Below are positions 3,197 to 41,200 of a DNA stretch of 64,000 nucleotides, piece after piece. The translations under genes were made by a program, and so were the position numbers. Source of the DNA: Candidatus Saganbacteria bacterium. Lineage in GTDB: Bacteria > Margulisbacteria > WOR-1 > JAPLLA01. The stretch is taken from positions 2,972 to 66,971 of the forward strand of contig JAPLLA010000019.1 in NCBI GenBank assembly GCA_026387795.1, given 5' to 3'. The notes under the pieces are model-generated. The model was not told the DNA's origin and ran no database searches. It saw only the letters and a program-made list of their open reading frames with translations. Each line of letters starts with the position of its first letter. Within the stretch, counting starts at the first letter, position 1.

Positions 3197-5278
3197 ATGC
3201 AAAACCCTTTTGGCGTAACTTTTTATCCTGAACTCTGGTCAAAAAACGAAGTCAAAGAAGCTTTTGTTTTAATCAAAAAAAGCGGCTTTAATATTATCCG
3301 TTTTGGCGAAATCAGCTGGGGAGAAGTAGAACCAAAAGACGGCAAATTTGATTTCCGCGCTTTTGATGAAGCATTTAAAATTGCCCAAAAACTCGGGCTT
3401 AAAATTTTACTTGGCCTCGGTGTTTCACAAGCTCCGCAATGGTTAATCGCCAAGCATCCAGAGTTCAAGCAGGTCTCTTCTTGCGGTTTTACGCATCCCG
3501 AATACGGCCCGCGGCCAAATGTATGCAGGGATAACCCCAGGTTTTTAAAATATGCCAAGCGCTATGTCGAAAAAGTACTTAAACGTTACGCCAAACATCC
3601 TGCACTTGCAATGTGGCAGATTGACAATGAGCCAAACTATCCGCCGCTAGACCTTACAAACAACTGCTTGGATTTTTGCCACTGTCCTGCCACGCGTAAA
3701 GCTTTTATTGATTGGCTTAGGGAGAGATACAAAACCATAGACAAGCTGAACCAAGCTATGGGAACAAGTTTCTGGGGAAATCGCCTGGGGAATTTTGCCG
3801 ACATTGCTACTCCCAAAGGCGGATTTTGGGATGCCGGTAACCCGCATTTTTATCTGGAATGGATGCGCTTCAAAAGCGAACAACTTAGCAAGTGGCTCTG
3901 CTGGTTAAAAGGGCTGGTCCGAAAATACGATAAAGAACATCCAGTGGGAACCAATAATTTTGTGGGAATCTGCTGCCGTACCCCCGACCATCTTAAGCTT
4001 GCCCGTGGAATGGATTATTACGGCTGGGATGTTTACCCAAAGGGGACCAGAAATTCTCCTGAGAGCTTGGCGGAACACGCAGACCATTGGAGAGGAATAT
4101 GCGAAGCAAATAATGCCGCATTTATTCTTTCCGAACTCCAAGGCGGACGCAATGTGCGCTGGGGTTATCCGGGTTGGGTAAAAGGGGAAGAAATCTACAC
4201 TTGGTCGCATCAAGTAGCAGCGCATGGTGCCAAAGGCATTTTATATCATGCTTTAAGACCCCCCCTGTTTGGCAGTGAAACCGGCGGCTTTGGGATTTTG
4301 GGTGCGGACGGAGGAGAAACAGACCGGCTGCAGGAAATTGTAAAAGCAGGTAAAGAATTAAAACAGGTTTGGCCGATTATTAAAGATGCAAAGCTAAAAG
4401 CAGAAATTGCGATTGTATATTTAAAAAGTGCGGAGATCCAAACTTATCAAGAAGAAGGTCCGGTGCGCTCTGTGCCTGCGGGTTGGGTTGGAGGGCGTGG
4501 GGACATTGGGCTTATGTATGGGCTGGATAGCATTGCAGGCGCATACAGGGTACTTTGGGACTGGGACCTGCCCGGAGAATTTCTTTTTGAAGATAACCTG
4601 GCCAAAGAACTCCCTTCTTATAAAGCGATCCTTCTTCCCAATCCATATCTTTTGGACACAAAAACCGCCCAGGCTTTAATGCAATTTGTAAAGAATGGCG
4701 GCAGCCTGATTACAGAAGCGCGGTTTGGAATGAAGGACGAGCTTGGACATCTGCGTCCGCAGCCATTCCTTCAAAACTTTTTTTCCGTTAGGTACATTGG
4801 CACAGAAGTGATTGAAGGAGAAAAAACACTCAAAAAATTAGGCGGCAAAATTACGGGTTTTAGGGATTTAATAGAAACCAAAGAAGAGGTAGCGGGCTAT
4901 TTTGAAGATGGCAAGCCGGCTTTAATTTTAAAAAAAGTAGGCAAGGGTACCATTGTTTATGCGACATTTAGTTTATTTGCAAATCTGCTTAAATATGAAA
5001 ACTTAAATATCGTCAGATGGCTGCGCAAGCATTTGCCGGAGCCTTTTTACAAATTAAAAGCGAGCGAAGAAGTGGAAATAGTGCCGTGGGAAGACAAAGA
5101 CCTTTTCTTTTATGCAATTAACCATGCGGACAAAGAAGAAAAAGTAAAAATTACCCTCCAAAATAAGGTCAAAAAAGCGGAAGATTTATTAGGGAAATCC
5201 GATTGCGTAGTTTTGCAAGGTACGATACAATTTTCTCTCATGCCGAGAGGCGTAAAACTTATTAAAGTGCACCAGTAA
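3197..5278 (+). CDS. glycoside hydrolase family 42 beta-galactosidase-like protein
   Basis: 693 aa; N-terminal GVTFYPELW...FNIIRFGEISWGEVEP, characteristic of GH42 TIM-barrel enzymes. Confidence 0.75.
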   Translation: MQNPFGVTFYPELWSKNEVKEAFVLIKKSGFNIIRFGEISWGEVEPKDGKFDFRAFDEAFKIAQKLGLKILLGLGVSQAPQWLIAKHPEFKQVSSCGFTHPEYGPRPNVCRDNPRFLKYAKRYVEKVLKRYAKHPALAMWQIDNEPNYPPLDLTNNCLDFCHCPATRKAFIDWLRERYKTIDKLNQAMGTSFWGNRLGNFADIATPKGGFWDAGNPHFYLEWMRFKSEQLSKWLCWLKGLVRKYDKEHPVGTNNFVGICCRTPDHLKLARGMDYYGWDVYPKGTRNSPESLAEHADHWRGICEANNAAFILSELQGGRNVRWGYPGWVKGEEIYTWSHQVAAHGAKGILYHALRPPLFGSETGGFGILGADGGETDRLQEIVKAGKELKQVWPIIKDAKLKAEIAIVYLKSAEIQTYQEEGPVRSVPAGWVGGRGDIGLMYGLDSIAGAYRVLWDWDLPGEFLFEDNLAKELPSYKAILLPNPYLLDTKTAQALMQFVKNGGSLITEARFGMKDELGHLRPQPFLQNFFSVRYIGTEVIEGEKTLKKLGGKITGFRDLIETKEEVAGYFEDGKPALILKKVGKGTIVYATFSLFANLLKYENLNIVRWLRKHLPEPFYKLKASEEVEIVPWEDKDLFFYAINHADKEEKVKITLQNKVKKAEDLLGKSDCVVLQGTIQFSLMPRGVKLIKVHQ

Positions 5279-5289
5279 GGAGAAAGCAA

Positions 5290-7644
5290 ATGAAGTACGG
5301 ATTTTTTGACAAGAAAAATAGGGAATATGTAATTACCAGACCGGATACGCCGCTCCCCTGGATCAATTATTTGGGCAGTGAAGAATACTGCGCGCTTTTT
5401 TCAAACACCGCAGGCGGATACAGTTTTTGCGTAGACCCTCTTTACCGCAGACTGCTTCGCTACCGTTACAACAATGTCCCTATGGACCGCGGCGGCAGAT
5501 ACATATATATAAGGGACAACAAGACCAAGGAATATTGGTCCCCAACCTGGCAGCCGGTTTTAAAAGACCTCAAGCATTTTAAATACGAGTGCCGTCATGG
5601 TACAGGGTATTCCGTGATTTCTTCAGAATATGACGGAGTACAAACCAAAGGGACCTATTTTGTCCCGCTAGGGGAGAACTGCGAAGTGTGGATGCTGCAA
5701 GTTAAAAATGTTTCTAAAGCAGCCAAGAAAAAAAACTTAACGGTTTTTTCTTTTGTGGAATTCTGCTTGTGGGACGCATTAAACGACATGACAGATTTTC
5801 AATATAACTTGAACATCGGCCAAACCGAATATACAGATGGGGTTATTTGGCACCTGACCCGCTACAGAGTAGAAAAATACCAATTTGCCTATTTAGCCTG
5901 CACCAACCAGGATGTAACCAGTTTTGATTCAGACCGGGACAGCTTTCTTGGGCCTTACGGTTCTTTTGAAAATCCCAAAGCAGTAAAAGACGGCAAATGC
6001 TCAAACTCTATTGCGTGCGGTTGGTCTCCGGTTGGTTCGCACTGTGTCCCTATTACACTGAACGATAAAAACGAAGAAACCGTTATTTTTGTACTTGGCT
6101 ATAACACAGACAAAAAAGACGTAAAAAGGATCTTAAAGAAATTCGATTCCAAAACAAAGGTGGAAAAAGAGATCCAAAAGCTCAAAGAGTATTGGGAAGA
6201 GAGCCTCAACAAGTTCACAGTTGAAACCGAAGACGAAGAAATGAACACAATGTTAAACACCTGGAACCAGTACCAATGCCGTACCACTTTTAACTGGTCC
6301 CGTTCCGCTTCTTACTACGAAGCGGGCATCGGCCGCGGCATGGGTTTTAGGGATTCAAACCAAGATACCTTGGGCTTTGTGCATCAGATCCCGCAAAAGG
6401 TAAAAGAGAGAATTATTGATATCGCTTCTACTCAATTTGAGAACGGAAGCGCAAACCACCAGTATCAGCCGCTTACCAAAAAAGGTGCTGGCGGAGGATT
6501 TTCCGACGACCATCTTTGGCTAATTATTTCTGTGGCAGGATACATTAAAGAAACTGGAGACTTTGCTTTCCTGTCTCAAAAAGTCCCGTTTGAAAACGGC
6601 AAAAAAGCGCCGATGTACGAACATTTGGAAAAAGCGATTGAATATACCATGACTAACCTGGGTCCGCACGGATTGCCCAAAATGTTTAAAGCAGATTGGA
6701 ACGATTGCTTAAACCTTCCTGGGGCCAAAGGCCAGTCAGAATCCGTGATGGTTGCCCAGCAGTTGGTTTACGTAGCCCGCGAAATGGAAAAACTGGCAGT
6801 ATACGCAGGTAAGTCGGAAGATGCGGAAAAATATGCCAAGTATGCTCAGCAAATGACCAAGAGCATCAATTCCGTAGCTTGGGATGGTTCTTGGTATTTA
6901 CGCGCTTTTACAGACGATAAGGAAGCAGTGGGATCTTCCAAATGCAAAGAAGGAAAGATTTACCTGGAAACACAGCCTTGGGCGGTTATGAGCGGAAGCG
7001 CGCCGGAAGATCGGGCAAAAAAGTGCATGGATTCTGTTTACAAGCATTTGTTCAGCAAGCACGGGATCATGATCCTGCAGCCTTCTTACGAAGAGTATCC
7101 TCCTGAGCTTGGTACGATCGGTTTTTACCCTCCGGGGCTTAAAGAAAACGGAGCGATCTTTTGTCATCCAAACCCATGGGCCATGGTTGCAGAATGCATG
7201 TTGGGCAGGGGAGACCGCGCGTTTGAATATTACAAAGCGATCCTTCCGGCAGCGCGCAACGACATAGCAGAGATCCATCGTACAGAGCCATATGTCTACT
7301 GCCAAATGATTGCGGGCCGTGACCACGCTAAGTTTGGAGAAGGCAAAAACTCTTGGTTGACTGGTTCTGCTTGCTGGAACTTTGTAGCAGCATCACAATG
7401 GATCCTTGGCATCCGCCCAGATTACGAAGGACTGATGGTTGATCCTTGCATTCCAAAAGGATGGGACGGTTTTGAAGTAAAGAGAGTATTTAGAGGCGCA
7501 ACCTATTACATTACTGTAAGAAACCCCAAACATGTTTCAAAAGGGATCAAAGAAGTTACAGTAGATGGTAAAAAGGTTGAATCCAATGTTGTCCCTGTCT
7601 TTTCAGATGGCGGCGAGCATTTTGTGGAAGTCCTCATGGGGTAG
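5290..7644 (+). CDS. glycoside hydrolase family 94 glycosyl phosphorylase (cellobiose/chitobiose phosphorylase-like)
   Basis: 784 aa; N-terminal ...ITRPDTPLPWINYLG... and overall length typical of GH94 disaccharide phosphorylases. Confidence 0.8.
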   Translation: MKYGFFDKKNREYVITRPDTPLPWINYLGSEEYCALFSNTAGGYSFCVDPLYRRLLRYRYNNVPMDRGGRYIYIRDNKTKEYWSPTWQPVLKDLKHFKYECRHGTGYSVISSEYDGVQTKGTYFVPLGENCEVWMLQVKNVSKAAKKKNLTVFSFVEFCLWDALNDMTDFQYNLNIGQTEYTDGVIWHLTRYRVEKYQFAYLACTNQDVTSFDSDRDSFLGPYGSFENPKAVKDGKCSNSIACGWSPVGSHCVPITLNDKNEETVIFVLGYNTDKKDVKRILKKFDSKTKVEKEIQKLKEYWEESLNKFTVETEDEEMNTMLNTWNQYQCRTTFNWSRSASYYEAGIGRGMGFRDSNQDTLGFVHQIPQKVKERIIDIASTQFENGSANHQYQPLTKKGAGGGFSDDHLWLIISVAGYIKETGDFAFLSQKVPFENGKKAPMYEHLEKAIEYTMTNLGPHGLPKMFKADWNDCLNLPGAKGQSESVMVAQQLVYVAREMEKLAVYAGKSEDAEKYAKYAQQMTKSINSVAWDGSWYLRAFTDDKEAVGSSKCKEGKIYLETQPWAVMSGSAPEDRAKKCMDSVYKHLFSKHGIMILQPSYEEYPPELGTIGFYPPGLKENGAIFCHPNPWAMVAECMLGRGDRAFEYYKAILPAARNDIAEIHRTEPYVYCQMIAGRDHAKFGEGKNSWLTGSACWNFVAASQWILGIRPDYEGLMVDPCIPKGWDGFEVKRVFRGATYYITVRNPKHVSKGIKEVTVDGKKVESNVVPVFSDGGEHFVEVLMG

Positions 7645-7664
7645 AGATTTGTCCTAGGCCAACG

Positions 7665-7718
7665 CCGGGAATCCCGGTGTATTGACAAGATACCGGGAAT
7701 CCCGGTATAATTGCAAAT
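7665..7718 (+). promoter_or_regulatory. consensus sigma70-type promoter TTGACA-18-TATAAT with two copies of a CCGGGAATCCCGG near-palindrome; predicted leaderless start at the ATG of the 7719 gene
   Basis: TTGACA at 7682-7687 and TATAAT at 7706-7711; near-palindromes at 7665-7677 and 7693-7705, the second inside the spacer; ATG at 7719 with no SD. Confidence 0.6.
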
Positions 7719-8681
7719 ATGAAGATCCACTTGCCAAATAGCGCTTTTTTGGGTAATATTGACCCTTTTATTCGCGGGTTTGATCCTTTATCAGACAATG
7801 TTCTGGAAATTTCCGCCAATGATAAATGGATTTCAGTTCATCCAGTGGTTTTATCGATGATTGCCGCACTTGGCTTGACAATTGATGCCAAGAATATTTC
7901 TTGTGCTAAGTTTGAAGCAAAATCAAAACACTATCTTGCGCGCATGGGACTTTTTCAAATATTGGGAATTAGATCAGACTTTGATTTTGTGGAGCACGAA
8001 CCTGCCGGCCGCTTTATTCCTGTCACCCAGATAAAAACGTCAGGCGAGCTGACAAAATTCATCACCGAAATGATCCCTCTTTTACATCTTGAGCCGGAGC
8101 AGGCGAAAACGATCGGTTACATTGTAAGCGAATTAGCGCGAAATGTTATTGAGCATGCTGCTTCCGAAAAAGGGGCAGTATTGTGCGCCCAATATTATAA
8201 AAAAAGCAATTCAATCCGCGTTGGGATTGCTGATACTGGTGTTGGCATAAAAAAAACGATCAATCAATCCTATGCTGCGGCAACTGATCTGGAGGCTGTT
8301 AAACTTGCCCTGCAGCCGGGAATTACAGGAACAACAAGAAGAGAAGGGGGTACAGAGCAAAATGCCGGGGCAGGACTGTTTTTTATAAAATCCATTGCCA
8401 GCGTGAACCGGGACTTTTTTGTCATTTACAGCGGATCAGGATTTTATAAGCTGCTGAAAAAAACATCGCGAGTAAGACCGCAGCTAAATGCAAACCCGGA
8501 AAAAGACCGGCACTCGGAAAGCGATGAAATGCCTTTTTGGCATGGGACTATTGTGGGGATAGACATTTCCCTTAACCAGACCGAAGAATTTTCCCTGTTG
8601 CTGGATGCCATAAGAAAAACCTATAGTACTGCTCTGAAAGAAAGAAGAAAATCACGCTATAGGAAGCCAAGGTTTATATGA
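7719..8681 (+). CDS. GHKL-type ATP-binding protein (HATPase_c-like, RsbW/anti-sigma-kinase-like) with unknown N-terminal domain
   Basis: 320 aa; N-box-like SELARNVIEHA, G1-like GIADTGVGI and G2-like GAGLFFIKS motifs. Confidence 0.6.
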   Translation: MKIHLPNSAFLGNIDPFIRGFDPLSDNVLEISANDKWISVHPVVLSMIAALGLTIDAKNISCAKFEAKSKHYLARMGLFQILGIRSDFDFVEHEPAGRFIPVTQIKTSGELTKFITEMIPLLHLEPEQAKTIGYIVSELARNVIEHAASEKGAVLCAQYYKKSNSIRVGIADTGVGIKKTINQSYAAATDLEAVKLALQPGITGTTRREGGTEQNAGAGLFFIKSIASVNRDFFVIYSGSGFYKLLKKTSRVRPQLNANPEKDRHSESDEMPFWHGTIVGIDISLNQTEEFSLLLDAIRKTYSTALKERRKSRYRKPRFI

Positions 8682-8962
8682 AGCAGATAAATATTTTTGA
8701 TAAAGCTGGATCGTTTGCGGAAAATAAAGACATTGCTAAAGCGGTCCGGATAGAAGAGATCCTTCCTGCGTTAAACAAGCAGGAGGAAATTATCCTGGAT
8801 TTCAAAAACGTTGAGGCTGCTACGCAGTCTTTTATCCACGCGCTTCTCAGCGATGTTATAAGGAAATACGGCGGCGAGGTTTTGGACAAAATATCTTTTA
8901 GATCGTGTAATGATACCGTAAAAAAGATAATAGGCATTGTGGTTGACTACATGCAGGAGTAA
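8678..8962 (+). CDS. small STAS-like (DUF4325-like) protein, putative partner of the upstream ATPase
   Basis: 94 aa; start overlaps the stop of the upstream gene (ATGA); size and pattern of STAS-like antagonist proteins. Confidence 0.5.
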   Translation: MKQINIFDKAGSFAENKDIAKAVRIEEILPALNKQEEIILDFKNVEAATQSFIHALLSDVIRKYGGEVLDKISFRSCNDTVKKIIGIVVDYMQE

Positions 8963-8968
8963 AGCACT

Positions 8969-8999
8969 GGTGTGCCATTTTGGCACACCTCTATTTTCC
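8969..8999 (+). terminator. intrinsic terminator-like hairpin after the STAS-like gene
   Basis: GGTGTGCCA-TTTT-TGGCACACC stem-loop followed by a T-rich tract. Confidence 0.45.
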
Positions 9000-9041
9000 G
9001 ACGGCGGCGAGCATTTTGTGGAAGTGGCGATGGGGTAAGAC
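9000..9041. repeat. displaced ~42-bp copy of the 3' end of the GH94 gene; direct repeat partner of 7606-7647
   Basis: GACGGCGGCGAGCATTTTGTGGAAGTGGCGATGGGGTAAGA versus GATGGCGGCGAGCATTTTGTGGAAGTCCTCATGGGGTAGAGA at 7606-7647; both encode ...SDGGEHFVEV.MG*. Confidence 0.65.
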
Positions 9042-9169: not shown

Positions 9170-9427
9170 TTAGGAGGCTCCTCCACTACCATCCGAGCAC
9201 TCTCCTGTGGCACCTGTTCCTGGAGCACAAAGCTCTGTTGAGATAACATCTCCGCCATCGCCACAGCCGAATGCTGCCGAAGGGCCCGTATTACACGAGT
9301 TGTTTGCTATTCCCCCATTGGCAACACATCCGCCAGCAGCATTTGAACCCGCAGGGCAAGCATCTCCGTATGTCTTTCGGGAAGCTAAACTTAGTAGGCC
9401 TGGGGCTTGATATTTTATCTTTTCCAT
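9170..9427 (-). CDS. Cys/Gly/Ala-rich small protein (85 aa) ending ...GSGGAS
   Basis: ATG at 9427 preceded by GGAGGA SD; sequence MEKIKYQAPGLLSLASRKTYGD followed by a low-complexity C/G/S/T/A-rich region with 7 Cys; immediately downstream of the JAMM gene on the same strand. Confidence 0.45.
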   Translation of the reverse strand: MEKIKYQAPGLLSLASRKTYGDACPAGSNAAGGCVANGGIANNSCNTGPSAAFGCGDGGDVISTELCAPGTGATGECSDGSGGAS

Positions 9428-9474
9428 TTTATTCCTCCGCAGGTTGATTTTAGTAAAGCATACACTATGGAATA

Positions 9475-9484
9475 GGGGGGGGGG
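9475..9484. repeat. G10 (C10 on the coding strand) homopolymer tract in the JAMM/small-protein intergenic gap
   Basis: direct read: aataGGGGGGGGGGcaagg. Confidence 0.85.
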
Positions 9485-9499
9485 CAAGGAGAAAAACCG

Positions 9500-10075
9500 C
9501 TAAGCCTTAGTGCTAAAAGTGGATGAATCCCAATTTACAGGAATATCTTTTTTGTAAGTCAGCTTGCGGTTTAAGTAGTCAGAGAGCATCTGCTTAAGCT
9601 CTGCCATTTCTTTTTCCGGCAGGTTATCGCTCATCTTTGGCTTTCCAGTGGCAATATCAACTACCGTAAACCCTTTATCGCTTATTACTCTAATCGCTTC
9701 GGGAACAGCGGTCTTTTTTACTACCTGGTAAGCCGCGAATTCTGGATTGTACTGGTCGCGTAATCCCACAATAAATAAATAGCGAAAATTGTGGGCCAAA
9801 TCCTGCTCCGATGGATAAGCTATACCTTTAGGATGAGTATGGTAAACTCCTAAAAATTCCATCCCGTGCTTTTGTAAAAAGAGGTGGCCGCGCTCAAAAT
9901 CTTCGCCAACCAAGCCGTATTTTTTATTTGGGTCAAGGAATTCTTTGTTGGCAATGGGAAGTACGGCCATAATAGAGTTCCCTTGCCCGCCCAAGATTCC
10001 GCCAGTCTCCTGCGGATACGCTTCCATGGCTTGTTGTAAAATTATTCTATATTGATGCTCTGTAATCTGTAACAT
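9500..10075 (-). CDS. JAMM/MPN+ family metalloprotease (Mov34-like)
   Basis: 191 aa; ...GVYHTHPKGIAYPSEQD matches the JAMM motif H-x-H-x(7)-S-x(2)-D; upstream Glu also present. Confidence 0.7.
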   Translation of the reverse strand: MLQITEHQYRIILQQAMEAYPQETGGILGGQGNSIMAVLPIANKEFLDPNKKYGLVGEDFERGHLFLQKHGMEFLGVYHTHPKGIAYPSEQDLAHNFRYLFIVGLRDQYNPEFAAYQVVKKTAVPEAIRVISDKGFTVVDIATGKPKMSDNLPEKEMAELKQMLSDYLNRKLTYKKDIPVNWDSSTFSTKA

Positions 10076-10778: not shown

Positions 10779-11246
10779 TTGAAGTGTCCTTTTTGTGGCA
10801 AAAAAAACGATCGAGTACTGGAATCGCGAGTTGCGGAAGAAGGGTTGGCAGTCAGAAGGCGCCGCGAATGCGTTGGGTGTAAGGAACGCTTTACTTCCTA
10901 CGAGCGGATAGAAGAAAAGCCCCTCTGGGTGATCAAGCGCGACGGCCGCAAGGAGACTTATTCCAGGGAAAAACTGTTAAGCGGGGTGGTGAGGGCGTGC
11001 CACAAGCGATCAGTAGCGCTTAGTGCGGTAGAAAGATTGGTTTCCGAAGTAGAAAAACTTTTACATAAAGAAAAAGGGCGGGAGGTTAAATCTTCAAAAC
11101 TTGGCGAACTCACCCTAAAAAAGCTTAGAAAACTGGATTCCGTAGCCTACGTGAGATTTGCCTCTGTTTACCATCAATTTAAAAACCCCGAAGAGTTTTT
11201 TATTGAAATGAAGAAATTATTATCCGGGGGGCGTCGTGGCAGATAG
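10779..11246 (+). CDS. nrdR: transcriptional repressor NrdR
   Basis: 155 aa; N-terminal zinc ribbon MKCPFCG...CxxC followed by an ATP-cone domain; TTG start. Confidence 0.9.
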   Translation: MKCPFCGKKNDRVLESRVAEEGLAVRRRRECVGCKERFTSYERIEEKPLWVIKRDGRKETYSREKLLSGVVRACHKRSVALSAVERLVSEVEKLLHKEKGREVKSSKLGELTLKKLRKLDSVAYVRFASVYHQFKNPEEFFIEMKKLLSGGRRGR

Positions 11247-13280
11247 AGAAAAGAAAGGAAGTGCGGCAATGAATCCAATGGCAGTAGCGGACGAAATAAA
11301 AAAAGAAGATTCAACGGACTTGGCTTTGTTTGTAAGAACCTCGGGAGACGATATTATTGCCTGGAACAGGCAGAAGATTGTGGAAGCCTTGATCCGGGAG
11401 ACCGGGCTGGCCAGAGAAATAGCGGACCAGATTGGATGTGAAGTGGAAGACGAAATGAAGAAGATGAACCTTAGGTTTGTTACTTCCCCGCTTATCCGCG
11501 AGCTGGTAGATGTAAAACTTTTGGAACACGGTGAAGAAGAAGCGCGGCGCAAGCATACCAGACTTGGCACCCCGCTTTATGATGTGCAGCAGCTCATTGT
11601 CAACGCCAACAAAGAAAATGCCAATGTCCCACATGGTCCCGAAGCCACCAACCTGACCCTTGCTGAAAACATTAAAAAAGAATTTGCCCTACTTTCGGTT
11701 TTTGCCCAGGATGTTGCTGATGCACACATGCGTGGCGACCTGCACCTGCATGATTTGGGTTTTATAGACCGCCCTTATTGCAGCGGACAATCCGTGGAAT
11801 ATGTAAAAAAATTCGGGCTCGACCTTCCAAACGCGCTTTCAATAGCAAAACCGGCAAAACACGCAGAAGTTTTGCTTGCACAAATGGTTAAATTCTCTGC
11901 TGCACTCCAGGGAGTGTTTGCCGGTGCAATTGGCTGGGATGCGGTAAACCTCTTTTTTGCTCCATTTTTAGAAGGGATGTCAGACGCAGAGATTAAGCAG
12001 ATTGCACAAATGATGATCTATGAATACAGCCAGCAAGCAGTGGCCAGGGGAGGGCAGGCGATTTTTTCAGACATCAACATATACTGGGAAATTCCCAAAC
12101 ACTTTGAAAATGTTCCGGCAATCGGCAAGGGGGGACAGTATACGGGCAAGGTTTACGGAGACTACTTAAAAGACGCACAGAGGTTTGCTTGGGCATTATT
12201 TGACGTATATATGGAAGGAGACGGCTCCGGTCGTCCCTTCTTTTTCCCAAAACCGCTGGTGCACATGACTGAAAAGTTTTTTAAAACCGAAGGCCACCAA
12301 GAATTCTTATTGCATATTTCCAAAGTCGCCACGGAAATGGGGAACACTTATTTTGTGTTTGACCGGGGAGAAACCGCCAAGATTTCCGAATGCTGCCGTC
12401 TCTCTTTTAAGCTGGAGCAGTCGGATCTGGATGATGCCAAAGAACCGTGGAGGATGCGCTATTCCGCTCTCCAAAACGTAACCATCAACCTCCCCAGGAC
12501 AGCATTTAAAGCAGAGGGAAGCGATGAAAAACTCTTTGTGCTGATAGGAGAAATGCTGGAACTGGCAGCTACTGCACACGTACAAAAGAAAAATTTTATT
12601 GAAGCGCTCTTGGCCAAAGGTACAAGCGGACCGCTTTCCATGCTAGCCATGAAGCGTGATGGCCAGCCGTATCTTAGGATGTTTAGAGTAAGTTATTTAA
12701 TGGGCATTTTGGGTCTCAATGAACTGGTGCAAGCACATATTGGCAAAGAGATGCATGAAAGCGACGCAGCTCTAAAACTGGGGCTCAAAGTAAATTCTTT
12801 TATGAAAATAAAATGCGACGAACTTTCCAGAAAGCACGGAATCCATTTTGTGTTGGAGCAAACCCCGGCAGAATCCACTGCCTATCGTTTTGCAAAACTT
12901 GATATTGCGCACTACCCTGAACAAGCCAAAAGAGTGGTAAAAGGGAATTTTGCTACAGGTGAAATTTATTACACTAATTCCACTTATTTCAATGAGAAAG
13001 CAAGCCGAGCCCTGCAAGCATTGCCAATTTTGTCATCAAGACCTTCCGTGAAACACAAAACACGCAAATTGCTTTTTCCCCGGAATTTACTTCCTGCAAC
13101 GACTGCGGGAAGATTGTAAGAGGACTAAAAGATCGCTGCCCTTATTGCAGTTCCGAGCAAATCGAAGGGATTACACGTATTACCGGGTATTTTTCAAAGA
13201 TTAAAGGATGGAATCGCGGTAAGACAGGGGAACTCAAGGAACGTTTCCGCGTCGGCACATTTTTTGAGGCATCATGTTAA
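11236..13280 (+). pseudogene. nrdD: anaerobic ribonucleoside-triphosphate reductase paralog (copy 1) with an internal ~95-nt out-of-frame deletion
   Basis: collinear with the intact copy at 13274-15367 up to ...YYTNSTYFN; then frame A reads a non-homologous tail ending at 13119 while frame +2 continues ESKPSPASIANFVIKTF...CNDCGKIVRGLKDRCPYC...RITGYFSKIKGWNRGK (Zn ribbon and glycyl-radical motif) to 13280; the ~32 aa VGNPMNLIDRVKQEGLFHPLIDAGALTHIWLG present in copy 2 are missing. Confidence 0.55.
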
Positions 13281-15367
13281 AACCCGAGATGCTCCAAGAG
13301 GAGAAAGAAGCGACAGATTTAGCTGTTTTTGTCCGCACTTCCACAGAAGATATGGTGGAGTGGGACAGGGAAAAAATTATTGGCGCATTGGTCAAAGAGA
13401 CGGGACTGGACCGGGAAATAGCAAAGATCATTGGTATCGAAGTTGAAAAGCAGATCCGCTCTATGTCTGTAGAAGTAATCACAGCACCCTTGGTTAGAGA
13501 ACTTGTAGATGTTAAGCTTTTGGAATATAAGCTGGAAGAAGCCAGAAGAAAGCATACCCGCTTGGGGGTTCCGGTTTACGACGTAAAAAGGATTATTTTT
13601 CACAAAAACAAAGAAAATGCCAATACTCCGCACTCCCCGGAAGCCACCAACCTGACCCTTGCGGAAAACATTAAAAAAGAATTTGCTTTAATGAATGTCT
13701 TTTCCCTTGATGTGGCAGATGCCCACATGCGCGGAGACATCCACCTCCACGACCTTGGTTTTGTAGACCGGCCTTATTGCAGCGGCCAGTCTATTGAATA
13801 CGTAAAAAAATTCGGGCTTGATCTTCCGGGTGCACCTTTTTCCGCAAGACCAGCGGAAGATGCGGATGAGCTGATTTCTCAGATCGTTAAGTTTTCAGTT
13901 GGGCTTCACAGTTTTTTTGCAGGAGCAATTGGCTGGGATGCCGTAAATATGTTTATGGCCCCTTATCTGGAAGGGTTGGGTTACGGCCACGTTAAAAAAC
14001 TGGCCAAGAAGTTGATTACGGAATTTGCGGCTGTGGCTGTGGCTGGCGGGGGGCAGGGGCTTTTTTCGGATTTAAATATTTACTGGGAAACTCCCAAGCA
14101 TTTTGAACAAGTCCCGGCTATAGGAAGGGAAGGGAGATATACCGGCAAGACTTACTCCGAATATTCCAAAGAAGCTCAGGAATTTGCCAAAGCGATGTTT
14201 GAAGTTTACAGAGAAGGGGACGGGGCAGGCAGGCCTTACTTTTTCCCAAAGCCATTGGTTCACATTACAGACAAATTTTTTAATACTCCCGGGCACGAAG
14301 AGTTTCTCAATTTAATCAGCGCAGTGGCTGCAGAAAAAGGGAACACTTACTTTGTTTTTGACAGGGGAGAGACCGCAAAAATCTCTGAATGCTGCCGCCT
14401 CTCTTTTAAACTGGAATATTCCGATCTGCAAGATGCCAAAGAACCATGGAGAATGCGCTATAGCGCCATCCAAAATGTTTCCATAAACCTTCCGCGCATT
14501 GCTTACCTGGCAGAACACGACAACGACCGGCTTTATAAAGAGATAGGGAGGTTTTTGGAAATAACCACAGCTGCACACAGGCAAAAGAAAAAATTTATAG
14601 TTGAGCTTTTAAACGAAGGTCCAAACGGGCCACTCTCCCTTTTAGCTACAAACCGTGACGGCGAAACGTACCTTAGATTGCGCCGCGTTACTTACCTTAT
14701 TGGCATGGTGGGTTTAAACGAAATGGTCCAATATCATTTGGGGAAAGAAATGCATGAAACATCCGAAGCATTAAAGCTTGGGCTCAAAATCATCTCTTTT
14801 ATGAAATTAAAATGCGAAGAGCTTTCGGAAAAATACGATATGCATTTTGTTTTGGAACAAACACCCGCAGAATCCACTGCGTATCGTTTTGCAAAGCTGG
14901 ACATGAAACACTTTTGTGTGGAAGCCGAGAAAGTGATGAAAGGAAATCTGGCGAACGGTGAAATTTATTATACCAATTCCACCTATTTCAATGTTGGGAA
15001 TCCCATGAACCTGATCGACCGCGTTAAACAAGAAGGGTTGTTCCACCCGTTGATTGACGCGGGTGCTCTTACCCACATTTGGCTGGGAGAATCACAGCCG
15101 GACCCGGAGTCTATTGCAAATTTTGTGGTCAAGACTTTTAACTCTACCCAAAATTCGCAGATTGCTTTTTCACCGGAATTTACAGTTTGCGGGGATTGCG
15201 GAAAAACCAGCCGCGGGTTATACTCTACCTGCCCGTTTTGCGCATCTGCGCACATCGAAGGAATCACTAGAATCACGGGCTATTTCTCGCGTGTTGCGGG
15301 CTGGAACAAAGGGAAAATCGGAGAGTTAAAAGACCGTCACCGGACCCAAGTCTTAAAGGAGGGTTAA
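13274..15367 (+). CDS. nrdD: anaerobic ribonucleoside-triphosphate reductase (class III RNR), intact copy
   Basis: 697 aa; C-terminal CGDCG...CPFC zinc ribbon and RITGYFSRVAGWNKGK glycyl-radical motif. Confidence 0.9.
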   Translation: MLKPEMLQEEKEATDLAVFVRTSTEDMVEWDREKIIGALVKETGLDREIAKIIGIEVEKQIRSMSVEVITAPLVRELVDVKLLEYKLEEARRKHTRLGVPVYDVKRIIFHKNKENANTPHSPEATNLTLAENIKKEFALMNVFSLDVADAHMRGDIHLHDLGFVDRPYCSGQSIEYVKKFGLDLPGAPFSARPAEDADELISQIVKFSVGLHSFFAGAIGWDAVNMFMAPYLEGLGYGHVKKLAKKLITEFAAVAVAGGGQGLFSDLNIYWETPKHFEQVPAIGREGRYTGKTYSEYSKEAQEFAKAMFEVYREGDGAGRPYFFPKPLVHITDKFFNTPGHEEFLNLISAVAAEKGNTYFVFDRGETAKISECCRLSFKLEYSDLQDAKEPWRMRYSAIQNVSINLPRIAYLAEHDNDRLYKEIGRFLEITTAAHRQKKKFIVELLNEGPNGPLSLLATNRDGETYLRLRRVTYLIGMVGLNEMVQYHLGKEMHETSEALKLGLKIISFMKLKCEELSEKYDMHFVLEQTPAESTAYRFAKLDMKHFCVEAEKVMKGNLANGEIYYTNSTYFNVGNPMNLIDRVKQEGLFHPLIDAGALTHIWLGESQPDPESIANFVVKTFNSTQNSQIAFSPEFTVCGDCGKTSRGLYSTCPFCASAHIEGITRITGYFSRVAGWNKGKIGELKDRHRTQVLKEG

Positions 15368-15368
15368 A

Positions 15369-15686
15369 ATGGGAGAGCAACAGATTGATATTAAGGTGTT
15401 TGGTAAACCGGGCTGCGAATATTGTAAGACCACCATGAAAAAGTTTGAGACCTTCCTGGACCGGTGGGAGATAGAAGACTCCAAAGTAGCTTTAAGTTTT
15501 TTTGATATGGAAACAGTAGACGGTTTGGCAGAAGGGGCTTTTTATTCTGTAACCAAGATCCCTGCCACTGTAATTGAAAAGCAGGGAGAACAACTCGGTT
15601 TTTGGCACGGCCAAGTCCCGATCTCAAAAGATTTTGAAAAGTTTTTTGAAGAGCTTAGACCAGTGTCAGCAGTAGAGATTAACTAG
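15369..15686 (+). CDS. glutaredoxin/NrdH-like thioredoxin-fold protein
   Basis: 105 aa; CEYC redox motif near the N-terminus; immediately downstream of nrdD. Confidence 0.55.
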   Translation: MGEQQIDIKVFGKPGCEYCKTTMKKFETFLDRWEIEDSKVALSFFDMETVDGLAEGAFYSVTKIPATVIEKQGEQLGFWHGQVPISKDFEKFFEELRPVSAVEIN

Positions 15687-37959: not shown

Positions 37960-38281
37960 TCCAGAAAAAGAAGCACAAAGGATAGTGGCGGAGTACTTAT
38001 CTGGGCTAGGGTGGGCCAGGCAGTGGCAGCAAGTGATAGAAAGAGAACCGCGGTCTTTTGGAAGGGACGAAAGAGAAGACAAGCTGCGCAAAGCAGAAAA
38101 GATGATGGAAGAAACCGAAGACCGCTTTAGCCAGCATGTGGAAAAATACCTCCACGATTCTTCGCCGGAAGCCAAACAAGTGTTGGAAAACATTCTAAAA
38201 AAACTTTCGCCTCGCCGCGACTTGGGGTTTTTCTGCCAGAGGATTTTGAGCCACATTAAAAACAAGCTGGGGATTTATTAG
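37937..38281 (+). CDS. hypothetical charged small protein
   Basis: 114-aa ORF; overlaps the 3' end of the 37199 gene; no motifs. Confidence 0.3.
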   Translation: MALPADSNPEKEAQRIVAEYLSGLGWARQWQQVIEREPRSFGRDEREDKLRKAEKMMEETEDRFSQHVEKYLHDSSPEAKQVLENILKKLSPRRDLGFFCQRILSHIKNKLGIY

Positions 38282-41200
38282 GCTTGGCTTTGTACTTCCC
38301 TTTGTAATTCAGACAGATTAAACGATAAATGCGGACGCCAGATAAAATTAAATCTTTCTACTGCTACGAAATAGCTTATCTCTTTATCTCCAATCTTGCC
38401 GGTAAACCTGCGATAGGTATCGGACATAGACTTAAAATTATAGATATGGGTATTGCGGTCAAATAATTCCGGATGGTCTGCTGCAGTCCAGCCAGAAGCA
38501 ACGCTTTCTACGGCGGAGCCAAGATACCTGGCATTGGGGTTTGCATCATCGTATTGGCGATTGGGATCTGCCAGATGAGTCATTGTGCCGCTGTCAAAAG
38601 GATCAAACATTACCCATTCGTGTGCACCGGATAGCATGCCTGGAAAGTGAGCGGATTTTTCAGCAAAACCCATGTAAACAGCGCTTCTGATCCCTGCTTC
38701 CTGGTAAGCCATTTGCAGTACCGGTGAACGATGCCTGCAACATCCGCCTTTTTTCATGAAAAAAGCCTGAGTTAAAAATTGCCCAGTTTGGCCTTTTTCC
38801 CTGGATTGCTTATCTGAATATGAAATGTGGAGCTGCTCGAAAATGTTTTTGGCTAAGCCGACTACGTGGTCAGGGGCATTTAATAATCCCGCGGCAAGGC
38901 GGGAGATTGCTTCTTTTTTTGCGGCTATCACAAATTCAAAAACAACAGAAGGATCTCCTGCGCTGTCTTTTTCCCCTTTGTTTATCCCTGCAACTTCACC
39001 GTGTTCCAGGGGTTTTCCCAATTCTGCATTGAGTAGCGCAGGAGAACAGTCATGTTGGCGCAGGAATGGGTTGTCAGCCACTTCCCCATATTTGTCCGGA
39101 GTGATTTCTGCTGCAAGCGTTATTTTGTGCCCATTTGGAAACAAAGCTGCCTCGATTTTTGTTCTGGTTAACATGGTTCTGCGCACTGCCTGGTCAAATT
39201 GTTTTTCTGCTTGAGGGGTAAGCCCGCCGACTTTTGCTTTCCAACCAAGGAGTCCTCCGGTTTTAGTTTTTGGCAGAGAAGCATATAAATCAGCCAATAC
39301 CTGATTTTCCGCGCGGATGCATGCAAGCGGGTCCCTAAGGTAAAGTTCTACATAAGTGTAAAAATCACTTGCAGTGGCAACGCGCATTACTCCGCCGGAA
39401 GCTTTGGGCATGGCCAGGCCACTGACCTCATCCGGTGTAAACTTTCCAAAAAGCTCCCCCAGTAAAACTGCTTTTACACTTTTTACCGGACGGGGCGCAA
39501 GAGCTGCTGCTTGTGCAACTACTCCCAGCAGGCCGTGTAACTTGCCCAGATATTCTTTTTTGTAGTTAGCTACTCTGGCAATACCCTTCCCACTGGTTAC
39601 ATATGTTTTTATCATTTCTCTCATTTTTAGCAAGGTATCTGGTTCTTTTGTAAGCAGGCCAATGAACTCCGTAAGATTTTCTGCAGTTAAAGAGACCGCA
39701 GCCAAAGTTGGGTGAGAGAAAGAAACTTTCCCGCCGGGTCTGTTGACTTTATGCGGGAAGAGAGAGCTAAACGCAGTGTTAAATGCTTCGGGATCACTAT
39801 GCCACTGCAGGTATCCAAGAATAATCCGTCTTAAAACTTCATTTTCAGGTGTATTTAATGCTGCCACAATTTGGGTTTGGGCAGCAGCAACTTTTGCTTC
39901 TATGGCAGCCCCGATTTTGGCGATGGCTGCTGTGCGGTGTTCAATTTTTTCTCGAATTTGTGCATTTGCCGGATCTGCCTGGGCTGCTGTTTCCCAAAGT
40001 GCACAATACTGCCGTAAGGCGGATAAAGCGGTAAAAAGATTTTCCAGGGAGTGCATTCTTGCCAGTTCTGCGCCGCTGGTTGAGATTGCTATGCCTTGAT
40101 TAAAAATAGCCCTAACTACATCCTTTTTGTCTCCTTGCTGTGCTTGCAAATCCGCTTCTGCTTCTTGGGCTGTTTTAAGAGCGCTTTTTTGCGGCGGCGT
40201 AGGAGGTTCCGGGACAGAAACTCTGGTGTGTTTATAAGCAAAAACAGAGACATTGTCCCCATGTGCACCACCGTTTGCTCTCATTGTTTCTACAGAGGCC
40301 TGGTAAATGTTTGCAGCTAAGTCAACTAAAGAAGATGTGGGGTCCAGCAGCTCAACAAAAGAAGCAAACTTTTCTTCTCCGGGCTTTTTTGAGGCAGCGT
40401 TAAAAGGAAGGTTGTCCCGCGGACCGTCAGTCATTCCCAAGACAATATCCCCTTCTTCCAATTCGCAGGTAAAAACATGCGGAGTACTGTTGGTTTGGCC
40501 CAAGGCTCTCAAAATTATGTGATTATTAGGAAACCCCCTAAAAATTTCATGATATTCTCTTAGCTCTTCTCCGCCTATGGGTTGGGTAGGGTAATCTCCT
40601 TTATCCATTTTATATCCTTCAACGGCTAAGTTGTCGTCGAACGACACTTGATGCAAGGTCCCGTTTTGTTTAAGGACATAAACAGGGGCGTCACCTATGT
40701 TAACTACAGTTAAAGTATTTCCGCGGACCTCGTAAGCAGCAACAGTACTTCCCATTCCTTTTAAGGTTTGTTTTTCCGGCCTTCCGTCTAAAGCTGCAGC
40801 AGCAAGATCTTTTTCTACTTCTTCCAATATTTTTGCTTGAGCCAGTGCAATACATTCTTGCAAAGTTTTACCTTCGCCAAGAGCTTTGGAAAAAACCTCT
40901 GCTGCTATGCGGCTGGCAACTTCTCCCCCTGCGTGTCCTCCCATGCCGTCAAAACAAACAAAAACCTTCCTTTGGGCATCTTCATAATACAAAATAGCAT
41001 CTTCGTTTTTTGCCCTTGCTCCAATGCTGGTGAGGCCGTGTATGTTTTTCCCTGGGAAAGTGATGACCCCTTCTGCTCCGCCCGCGTAAAATTTTACAGT
41101 TTGTACTGGTGCTGCTTCTTTCTGTGCAATGACTCGGTCCAAGTTTTCCAGTGCTTTGGTTTTGGCGCCCGCTATGTCTACCATAGACTGTAAAAGTGCG

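Follow-up and report, generated by a model that had tools for sequence, protein, structure and literature searches.

A stand-alone GHKL-kinase/STAS gene pair as a moron-like mobile cassette at the duplicated 3' end of a GH94 gene in a Candidatus Saganbacteria genome

Two switches that pair a GHKL kinase with a STAS-domain partner have been characterized (Chambers et al., EMBO J 2026, PMC13373217). In one, the kinase CapK, comprising helix-turn-helix (HTH), STAS and GHKL domains, is switched on by single-stranded DNA (ssDNA) and phosphorylates CapS, a STAS protein with a winged helix-turn-helix (wHTH) domain that acts as a repressor on palindromes covering both its own promoter and the promoter of an immune operon downstream. 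In the other, VapS is an inhibitor of the PIN toxin VapC unless VapK (STAS-GHKL) phosphorylates it, and the vapKSC toxin-antitoxin operon confers protection against a phage; that study selected only loci in which the three vap genes were all present, and units made up of the kinase and STAS genes alone are not described there. A coupling of DUF4325 genes to a PIN clade was noted in 2017; in the papers we found, the family (DUF4325/PF14213) is mentioned only incidentally, and a stand-alone unit of kinase and STAS-like protein is not described. Here we characterize such a unit, a cassette carrying the genes K (GHKL kinase) and S (STAS-like DUF4325 protein), in a 64,000-nucleotide (nt) stretch of a Candidatus Saganbacteria genome (assembly GCA_026387795.1, contig JAPLLA010000019.1, positions 2,972 to 66,971 of the forward strand), referred to below as the window, whose own numbering is used throughout. 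A first-pass annotation of this DNA had regarded a mobile, self-promoted version of such a pair as not a described system; the characterization of CapK/CapS and VapK/VapS/VapC in 2026 removes that claim for the type of switch, and leaves it standing for the effector-less, stand-alone version.

The cassette is a transcription unit of roughly 1.3 kb, consisting of operators and promoter, K, S and a terminator. Phage morons are autonomous promoter-gene-terminator units inserted between phage genes, and the K-S unit is likewise an autonomous, moron-like transcription unit moving between genomes and phages, because the pair recurs between unrelated genes, in phages, in prophages and on a plasmid. 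Relatives of K number 2966 in a protein collection clustered at 90% identity, the best 120 being 72-88% identical; in an exhaustive search they fall into 91 clusters of 50% identity at E<=1e-30 and 2475 at E<=1e-3. Those of the best relatives that carry names, 74-88% identical, are labelled Saganbacteria, Omnitrophica, Chlamydiae and Spirochaetes. Besides the GH94 locus, over 70 loci spread across several phyla contain this pair at 63-88% identity, with its layout of promoter and operators retained and among unrelated housekeeping neighbours, and S always comes after K in three contexts from metagenome-assembled genomes and in 80 metagenome loci, wherever the contig extends. Homologues of K reach 88% identity, whereas the closest non-self homologue of the adjoining GH94 protein, in a search of 5.8 billion proteins, is only 69% identical; the cassette is foreign to the GH94 locus.

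Sibling cassettes, designated like the comparison contigs by L-numbers (L100, L105, L142 and so on), share DNA homology from the first palindrome to about the S stop codon. Information content drops to about zero within a few codons past the conserved ...VVDYMQE, the S tail being cut at a different point from locus to locus. The immediate neighbours are unrelated: 111 proteins matched 136 Pfam families, the commonest of which occurred in just three and integrases in two. Most are housekeeping proteins, among them phosphoenolpyruvate carboxylase (PEPC), GatB, ALAD, Fe-hydrogenase and ribonuclease HII. Neither a sigma factor nor a PP2C phosphatase is present in the cassette or recurrent among the 111 neighbours; PIN is not among the families matched by at least two of them, nor was it found in the downstream open reading frames (ORFs) of the window, which lie on the opposite strand. 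In viral contigs, a single-sequence scan gave no match and a profile of distant relatives retrieved six loci. Phage relatives with 43% identity (L182-L184) are placed between head-protease/capsid genes and the phage tape-measure gene; they keep the layout, the leaderless spacing and a strong terminator, and have another inverted repeat, TACCCGTAGATCGTAT ... ATACGACCTACGGGTA. The operator sequence thus co-varies with the proteins in this distant clade. Further distant pairs occur beside an integrase in Marinitoga phage MPV1, in Francisella prophage KIRK and on an Alicyclobacillus plasmid. The self-contained mobile cassette lacking an integrase that the first-pass annotation had proposed is found at dozens of unrelated sites, and no recombinase gene lies within 10 kb of the copy at the GH94 locus.

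At that locus the footprint of its arrival is a direct repeat. The target gene (5290-7644, plus strand) encodes a cellobiose-phosphorylase-type GH94 protein (Pfam Glyco_hydro_94, E=6e-167; GH94_b-supersand, E=6e-83), and its 3' end is now the left copy of the repeat (DR-L, 7594-7643, plus strand), which supplies the functional last 16 codons with the stop TAG at 7642-7644. The right copy (8988-9037) is identical at 42 of 50 positions (84%), and the two flank 7644-8987; the direct repeats of about 42 bp that had been annotated here are thus real, somewhat longer, and were placed correctly within a few bases. Both copies contain an exact 23-nt core, GGCGGCGAGCATTTTGTGGAAGT (7609-7631 and 9003-9025), with differences on either side of it; this core occurs twice in the whole window and not at all in 100 shuffles, even with three mismatches permitted. 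The left copy encodes the GH94 tail ...PVFSDGGEHFVEVLMG and stop, while the right copy, together with its own stop TAA at 9036-9038 (DR-R, 8988-9038, plus strand), reads PLFSDGGEHFVEVAMG and stop in the same frame. A tail of the form ...EH.VEV.MG is the conserved C-terminus of the GH94 family, and the string FSDGGEHF is confined to this lineage; the right copy is therefore a genuine GH94 3' end, a relic that has kept frame, stop codon and a conservative protein sequence despite 16% divergence.

A segment of 1540 nt is found with no mismatch in contigs from four different sequencing runs, and the cassette is present in every contig with this GH94 protein that extends past the gene. Four identical independent assemblies rule out an assembly artefact, including the repeat collapse by which the copy at 9000-9041 might have been explained away. 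In one assembly of this genome, contig ERR15302205_1382518 (L190) ends 14 nt beyond the stop codon of GH94, immediately ahead of the palindromic promoter, perhaps because the assembly graph branches at sequence common to several cassettes of the community, or because the population is heterogeneous at the site.

Comparable duplications flank other insertions. When 400 nt 5' of K were compared with 400 nt 3' of S, a direct repeat with a score of at least 49 was detected at 13 of 66 loci, against 2 of 85 flank-shifted control windows of equal size (Fisher p=4e-4, about 8-fold); the highest score over 300 mismatched locus pairs was 31. The repeats are made of local sequence, have no relation to one another from locus to locus, measure 22 to 346 nt and are 84-100% identical. 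In the upstream gene they cover the 3' end (GH94; PEPC in L105; a tyrosine integrase in L100), in the downstream gene either the 5' end or, where that gene is convergent, the 3' end (L142, L169, L155), and the neighbouring gene is intact throughout. The spacer that separates repeat from conserved cassette varies as well, from about 5 to 100 nt at the left end and from 0 to 280 nt at the right. Such variation in the length and sequence of the repeats and in the spacers rules out a target-site duplication of fixed length as well as an att core common to the insertions. The two copies of L142 differ at six positions, every one of them a third codon position, within seven codons and beside 26 identical bases. 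In L100 the cassette is located at the integrase gene's 3' end; 346 nt of this gene, with the catalytic HxxR...Y region, are duplicated (2095-2440 and 3823-4170). A general synonymous bias, considered as proof of donor origin, was set aside: the differences pooled over loci (21/14/38 at codon positions 1/2/3) are ambiguous, and clear support comes from L142 and L105 only.

At L105 the order of events can be read against empty sites. The cassette lies between the genes for PEPC and purE, and the last 33 nt of the PEPC gene are duplicated. Three relatives, with PEPC proteins 90, 82 and 79% identical, retain the order gidA-PEPC-purE with a gap of 30-44 nt between PEPC and purE and no cassette. 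The relic (right) copy of L105 and the DNA that follows it match the empty site of L179/L180 exactly over 33 nt, and the left copy, the one used by PEPC, carries two synonymous differences and then runs into foreign spacer. This alignment identifies the right copy as the ancestral gene end, since it equals the empty-site sequence of the relatives, and makes arrival together with the cassette the most likely origin of the left copy. A mosaic test of the L105 flanks against L178, L179 and L180 gave no clear breakpoint.

The most likely history of the GH94 locus, then, is that a recombinase-free mobile cassette was integrated by homology-assisted recombination from a related donor. By analogy with L105, DR-R (8988-9038) is probably the ancestral GH94 end, contiguous with the original downstream DNA, and the spacer between the GH94 stop and the first operator (7645-7663, plus strand), which is not conserved in other cassettes, where alignable homology starts at the first palindrome, is probably donor flank brought along. 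Donor DNA would have carried the cassette behind its own GH94 end and recombined with the recipient end in the 23-nt core. If a circle, it would have entered by a single crossover of the Campbell type; if a linear fragment, by homology-facilitated illegitimate recombination. No cassette-encoded recombinase would have taken part. About 23 nt is near the minimal length for RecA-dependent exchange. GH94 would now end with the imported sequence (7594-7644), and the original end would persist as the untranslated relic (8988-9038), lending its T-run to the terminator. A crossover between diverged orthologous gene ends is expected to leave differences on both sides of the core, a relic with frame and stop kept, and third-position differences such as those of L142. 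On this account the ancestral GH94 gene should end ...GAAGTGGCGATGGGGTAA and continue directly into GACAAGGAGCC; were the left copy ancestral, it should end ...GTCCTCATGGGGTAG and continue into GACAAGG. Insertion exactly at the GH94 stop codon, as first annotated, is therefore probably the wrong geometry.

The first element of the cassette is an operator-like palindrome, O1 (CCGGGAATCCCGG, 7665-7677), which lies just 5' of the -35 element and is kept as TACCGGGAWTCCCGGTA in most of the 72 loci listed. It is followed on the plus strand by a sigma-70 promoter (7682-7711) agreeing with the consensus at 12 of 12 positions (TTGACA at 7682-7687, a spacer of 18 nt, TATAAT at 7706-7711), whose spacing is the same across loci and in the 43%-identical phage relatives. 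A second operator-like palindrome, O2 (TACCGGGAATCCCGGTA, 7691-7707), conserved among loci, fills the promoter spacer and overlaps the -10 element. The palindrome has the form (TA)CCGGGAATCCCGG(TA), with two copies in the promoter and no others in the window; in most of the loci listed the order is TACCGGGAWTCCCGGTA, TTGACA, TACCGGGAWTCCCGGTATAAT, 6-9 nt and the start codon. The start ATG at 7719 is only 7 nt past the -10 element and has no Shine-Dalgarno sequence, which indicates a leaderless mRNA. K (7719-8681, plus strand; HATPase_c_2 match) encodes a GHKL (Bergerat-fold) kinase of 320 amino acids (aa) of the anti-sigma type, and S (8678-8962, plus strand; DUF4325, E=8e-13) a STAS-like protein of 94 aa, translationally coupled to K through an ATGA overlap. 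An intrinsic terminator (8969-8999, plus strand) closes the unit, with a 9-bp stem (8969-8989), GGTGTGCCA/TGGCACACC, followed by TCTATTTTCC, its U-tract being formed by relic GH94 codons. All the contents that had been read from the DNA at first pass (leaderless consensus promoter, GHKL ATPase, overlapping STAS-like partner and terminator hairpin) were recovered by Pfam and sequence analysis. The base composition of the cassette is not distinct from that of its surroundings, and no Rfam family scored above threshold in the region, the only hit, to SAM_alpha, staying below it (20.7 bits, gathering score 36, E=0.09).

Variants of the control region were seen in several siblings. At least three operator palindromes precede K in L136 (3920-4000) and also in L104, L119 and L131; in L136 a 28-nt unit made up of operator and -35 element occurs twice in tandem, which points to slippage or to recombination between operators. 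In a subclade comprising L148, L149, L162, L166, L143, L139 and L146, one full palindrome is fused to a -10-like TAAAAT, and about 35 nt after it only a half-site (TTCCCGGTA) abuts the start codon, so that these copies are not leaderless. The metagenome locus L093 (1-118), whose cassette is among the closest (K 81% identical, S ending in DYMQE and stop like that of the GH94 locus), has no palindromic promoter 5' of K, and its control region appears to have been lost or replaced.

The proteins themselves suggest how the unit may operate. The model of K (AF2) shows an extra alpha/beta domain of about 105 aa at the N-terminus (residues 1-105), in which W37, H41 and P42 are invariant, and a C-terminal helix with a basic tail. 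Its best structural matches are SpoIIAB and RsbW; matches to anti-sigma F and B factors in NCBIfam are weak, and homologues are labelled 'anti-sigma regulatory factor' by the Joint Genome Institute (JGI). Foldseek matches of K to chains of 6m36 had been considered as support for a STAS domain and were rejected, the chains being RsbW and not RsbV. S ends right behind its STAS domain and has the invariant series T49-Q50-S51-F52 at the expected STAS phospho-acceptor position, T49 and S51 being invariant in 60 sequences. Searched as a profile against all PDB sequences, S had as its top match 9z7o_A, 'Escherichia VapS' (E=0.0057), ranking above a STAS anti-sigma antagonist; VapS S48 aligns between T49 and S51 of S. 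Both proteins match the N-terminal part of the PADLOC DrmA model PDLC02567 (positions 75-248 and 324-389; E=2e-15 and 2e-6), which implies, as a prediction from the alignments, that some DISARM DrmA helicases carry a fused K-S sensor module. A natural K-S fusion (P0108), folded alignment-free, reached a pLDDT of 38, too low for a model of the complex.

By analogy with SpoIIAB and RsbW, K would be an ATP-dependent Ser/Thr kinase that phosphorylates S at T49 or S51. As in CapK and VapK, the trigger could be ssDNA arising from DNA damage or phage replication, possibly sensed through W37 of the N-terminal domain. The two putative operators over the -35 and -10 elements would provide autoregulation by a binder encoded in the cassette, which could be dimeric S or, through its basic C-terminal helix, a dimer of K. 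As no effector gene travels with the pair, the kinase would most likely be its own output, S serving as a decoy or antitoxin in the manner of a toxin-antitoxin or abortive-infection system; a host target would be the alternative. The explanation as a whole, that of a stand-alone GHKL-kinase/STAS switch which, as a moron-like unit of about 1.3 kb, arrived with the aid of homology from a related donor, is autoregulated and has the kinase-S output just outlined, is in our judgement probable. A bolder version, in which the effector-less pair would be a complete conflict module with a toxic ssDNA-triggered kinase, a STAS decoy or antitoxin, a new kind of operator reader and a recombinase-free mode of spread that patches interrupted gene ends with the copy of the previous host, is put forward tentatively, as possible rather than likely.

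Several observations weigh against the favoured explanation. No empty site was found for the GH94 locus, where the first-pass annotation had proposed to look for one in related genomes: the 80 GH94 loci without cassette from species-representative genomes (best 65%) are distant and non-syntenic, and we infer the local history from the siblings, of which L105 does have empty counterparts. About 80% of the insertions have no detectable duplication, so the repeat is not obligatory. The recombination route is reconstructed from the footprints, no circular intermediate or donor having been seen, and the pooled differences between repeat copies (see above) fit duplication in situ followed by decay, as does the right copy of L100, a pseudogene fragment with a 2-nt insertion, a frameshift and near-uniform changes. 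As to function, ssDNA activation, phosphorylation of S and operator binding are proposed by homology; the N-terminal domain of K matched no STAS or other family by Pfam, PDB-sequence or hhalign comparison; domain searches found no HTH or wHTH family in K or S, and S has no recognizable DNA-binding domain; and the VapS match is weak by sequence (E=0.0057 for the profile and 0.15 for the single S sequence). PADLOC contains no defence-system model for the K-S pair, only the one DrmA match, and defence genes are not enriched among the neighbours at sibling loci, so that the co-occurrence in defence islands that had been suggested for checking was not borne out.

Duplication of the target in situ is a serious rival to integration with a donor end, if by our estimate an unlikely one. 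Staggered breaks, or two template switches during replication or repair, would have copied the gene end at insertion; the two copies would at first have been identical, the right one decaying while the left stayed under selection. The pooled codon-position counts resemble what one neutral and one constrained copy would produce, the L100 relic has its 2-nt insertion and near-uniform substitutions, the 35-nt repeat of L146 is perfect, and repeat lengths that vary from locus to locus suit template switching. Against it stand L105, where the relic shows no change against two outgroups and the functional copy has two synonymous ones, the six out of six third-position differences of L142 next to its identical stretch, and the GH94 relic, whose frame, stop and protein sequence have been preserved through 16% divergence. 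Far less probable still is that the locus is the remnant of a classical integrative element, in which a site-specific integrase, lost or encoded elsewhere, recombined an attP mimicking the GH94 3' end with attB and left the repeats as attL and attR. Gene 3' ends in duplicate, identical in the core and diverged to either side of it, do have the look of attL/attR, L100 stands beside a tyrosine integrase gene, and distant relatives neighbour prophage integrases; yet the repeats share no sequence between insertions, vary from 22 to 346 nt and are missing from most, integrases account for only two of the 111 neighbours, the 10 kb around the GH94 cassette hold no recombinase, the integrase gene of L100 is the duplicated target and not a partner, and the cassette ends are imprecise, with varying spacers and S tails truncated at differing points. 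The 'classic footprint of an integrated element' seen at first pass is accordingly upheld as a footprint of insertion, by the excess of repeats over controls and by the sibling empty site, and dropped as the mark of a site-specific integrase; relatives that carry the cassette without duplication, which had been named as a test, exist in number and count against a site-specific mechanism, not against insertion as such.

A third alternative concerns function. K could be the anti-sigma factor of an ordinary partner-switching module, sequestering a host sigma factor in a general stress response with S as its antagonist; the structural matches to SpoIIAB and RsbW, the weak NCBIfam hits and the JGI labels all point that way, and in L155 the pair is followed by a sigma-70-family gene. 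We consider this reading improbable, because the pair is not accompanied by a sigma factor and the unit functions in more than one phylum: a cassette that crosses phyla at 75-88% identity could not rely on a specific host sigma factor. Nor does a PP2C phosphatase accompany it, K has an N-terminal domain absent from SpoIIAB and RsbW, S belongs to DUF4325, a family coupled to PIN toxins, matched within a DrmA model and best matched by VapS, and copies occur as phage morons. The stand-alone kinase-STAS switch acquired from a related donor remains the explanation we prefer.

Other features of the window and of related loci were recorded alongside. In Omnitrophica (L008-L010, 1208-7280) a cassette lies in a sugar-utilization locus with the order SBP, GH94, glycoamylase, cassette; it is not beside GH94 and has no repeat, and its nearness to a GH94 gene is probably coincidence. 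Convergent with the cassette, on the minus strand at 9170-10075, are an ORF of 85-105 aa (weak NCBIfam match to the SynChlorMet precursor ScmA, E=0.0012) and a gene for a Prok-JAB protein (E=1e-14). JAB proteins occur in Bil, Bub and CBASS operons, which CapK/CapS regulate; a link between this JAB gene and the cassette is unlikely, given the opposite orientation and the other neighbours of sibling cassettes. Farther downstream, at 10779-15686, lie in this order NrdR, a neighbouring pair of NRDD-family ORFs of 627 and 697 aa (called with 712 and 697 aa in L001) and a thioredoxin-like gene; they could represent a duplicated or split anaerobic ribonucleotide reductase. Two giant ORFs of 1968 and 1853 aa occupy the minus strand at 38278-44184 and 48466-54027.

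With 63-88% identity across phyla and thousands of relatives, K and S are among the most conserved and most widely transferred genes of these uncultivated lineages. Work on CapK/CapS and VapK/VapS has established that DNA damage can be tied to very different outputs by a kinase-STAS pair; the output of the cassette would tell whether the kinase can itself be the effector and what reads the conserved operators. The footprints offer a clean natural example of small accessory units entering compact genomes at gene ends, with the target gene unharmed and no recombinase.

Among mobile units, the cassette is closest to the phage morons: it has its own promoter and terminator, is placed between unrelated genes, carries no recombinase and in its 43%-identical form lies between head and tail genes; unlike them, most K-S copies reside in bacterial chromosomes amid housekeeping genes, and about one in five is accompanied by a duplication of host sequence. 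Its footprints resemble those of Campbell-type or illegitimate recombination in their homologous direct repeats of variable length, in copies that differ as orthologues do and in the exact core of about 23 nt. Transposons and insertion sequences were rejected as models, the duplications being of no fixed length or absent and terminal inverted repeats lacking (none brackets the cassette at the GH94 locus), as was the integron gene cassette, since the unit has its own 12/12 promoter and, with information content near zero beyond the S stop, no conserved attC.

Among signalling systems, the pairs SpoIIAB/SpoIIAA, RsbW/RsbV and SiaB/SiaC differ from the K-S unit, which includes no sigma factor, phosphatase or diguanylate cyclase, is horizontally mobile and has a kinase that is longer by about 105 residues at its N-terminus and has a basic helix at its C-terminus. 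CapK-CapS, regulators of CBASS, Bub, Bil and Thoeris, agree with it in the order of kinase and STAS partner, in the type of kinase, in a conserved acceptor residue of the partner, which K is predicted to phosphorylate, in palindromes over promoter elements and in an invariant N-terminal Trp (W37 in K; W68 of CapK contacts ssDNA). They differ in the N-terminal HTH of CapK and the C-terminal wHTH of CapS, neither of which is present here, in half-sites of TTAA as against TACCGGGA, and in the immune operon 3' of the pair, in place of which the GH94 locus has the convergent small ORF and JAB gene and the siblings have housekeeping neighbours. VapK-VapS-VapC, as described, share with the cassette an HTH-free GHKL kinase, a small STAS protein encoded immediately after it, in which a Ser/Thr of the second helix is conserved without exception, and an occurrence as stand-alone operons scattered in genomes; the cassette differs in having no VapC/PIN gene at the GH94 locus or recurrently at sibling loci, an S of only 94 aa without the C-terminal helix by which VapS blocks VapC, and conserved palindromic operators and a leaderless promoter of its own. 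Because it lacks the HTH and wHTH domains, VapC, the inhibitory helix of VapS and a downstream immune operon, we class the cassette as neither CapKS nor VapKSC but as a variant of this kind of switch that stands alone and has no effector, the kinase-STAS pair in its minimal form, free of repressor domain, toxin gene and fixed neighbour.

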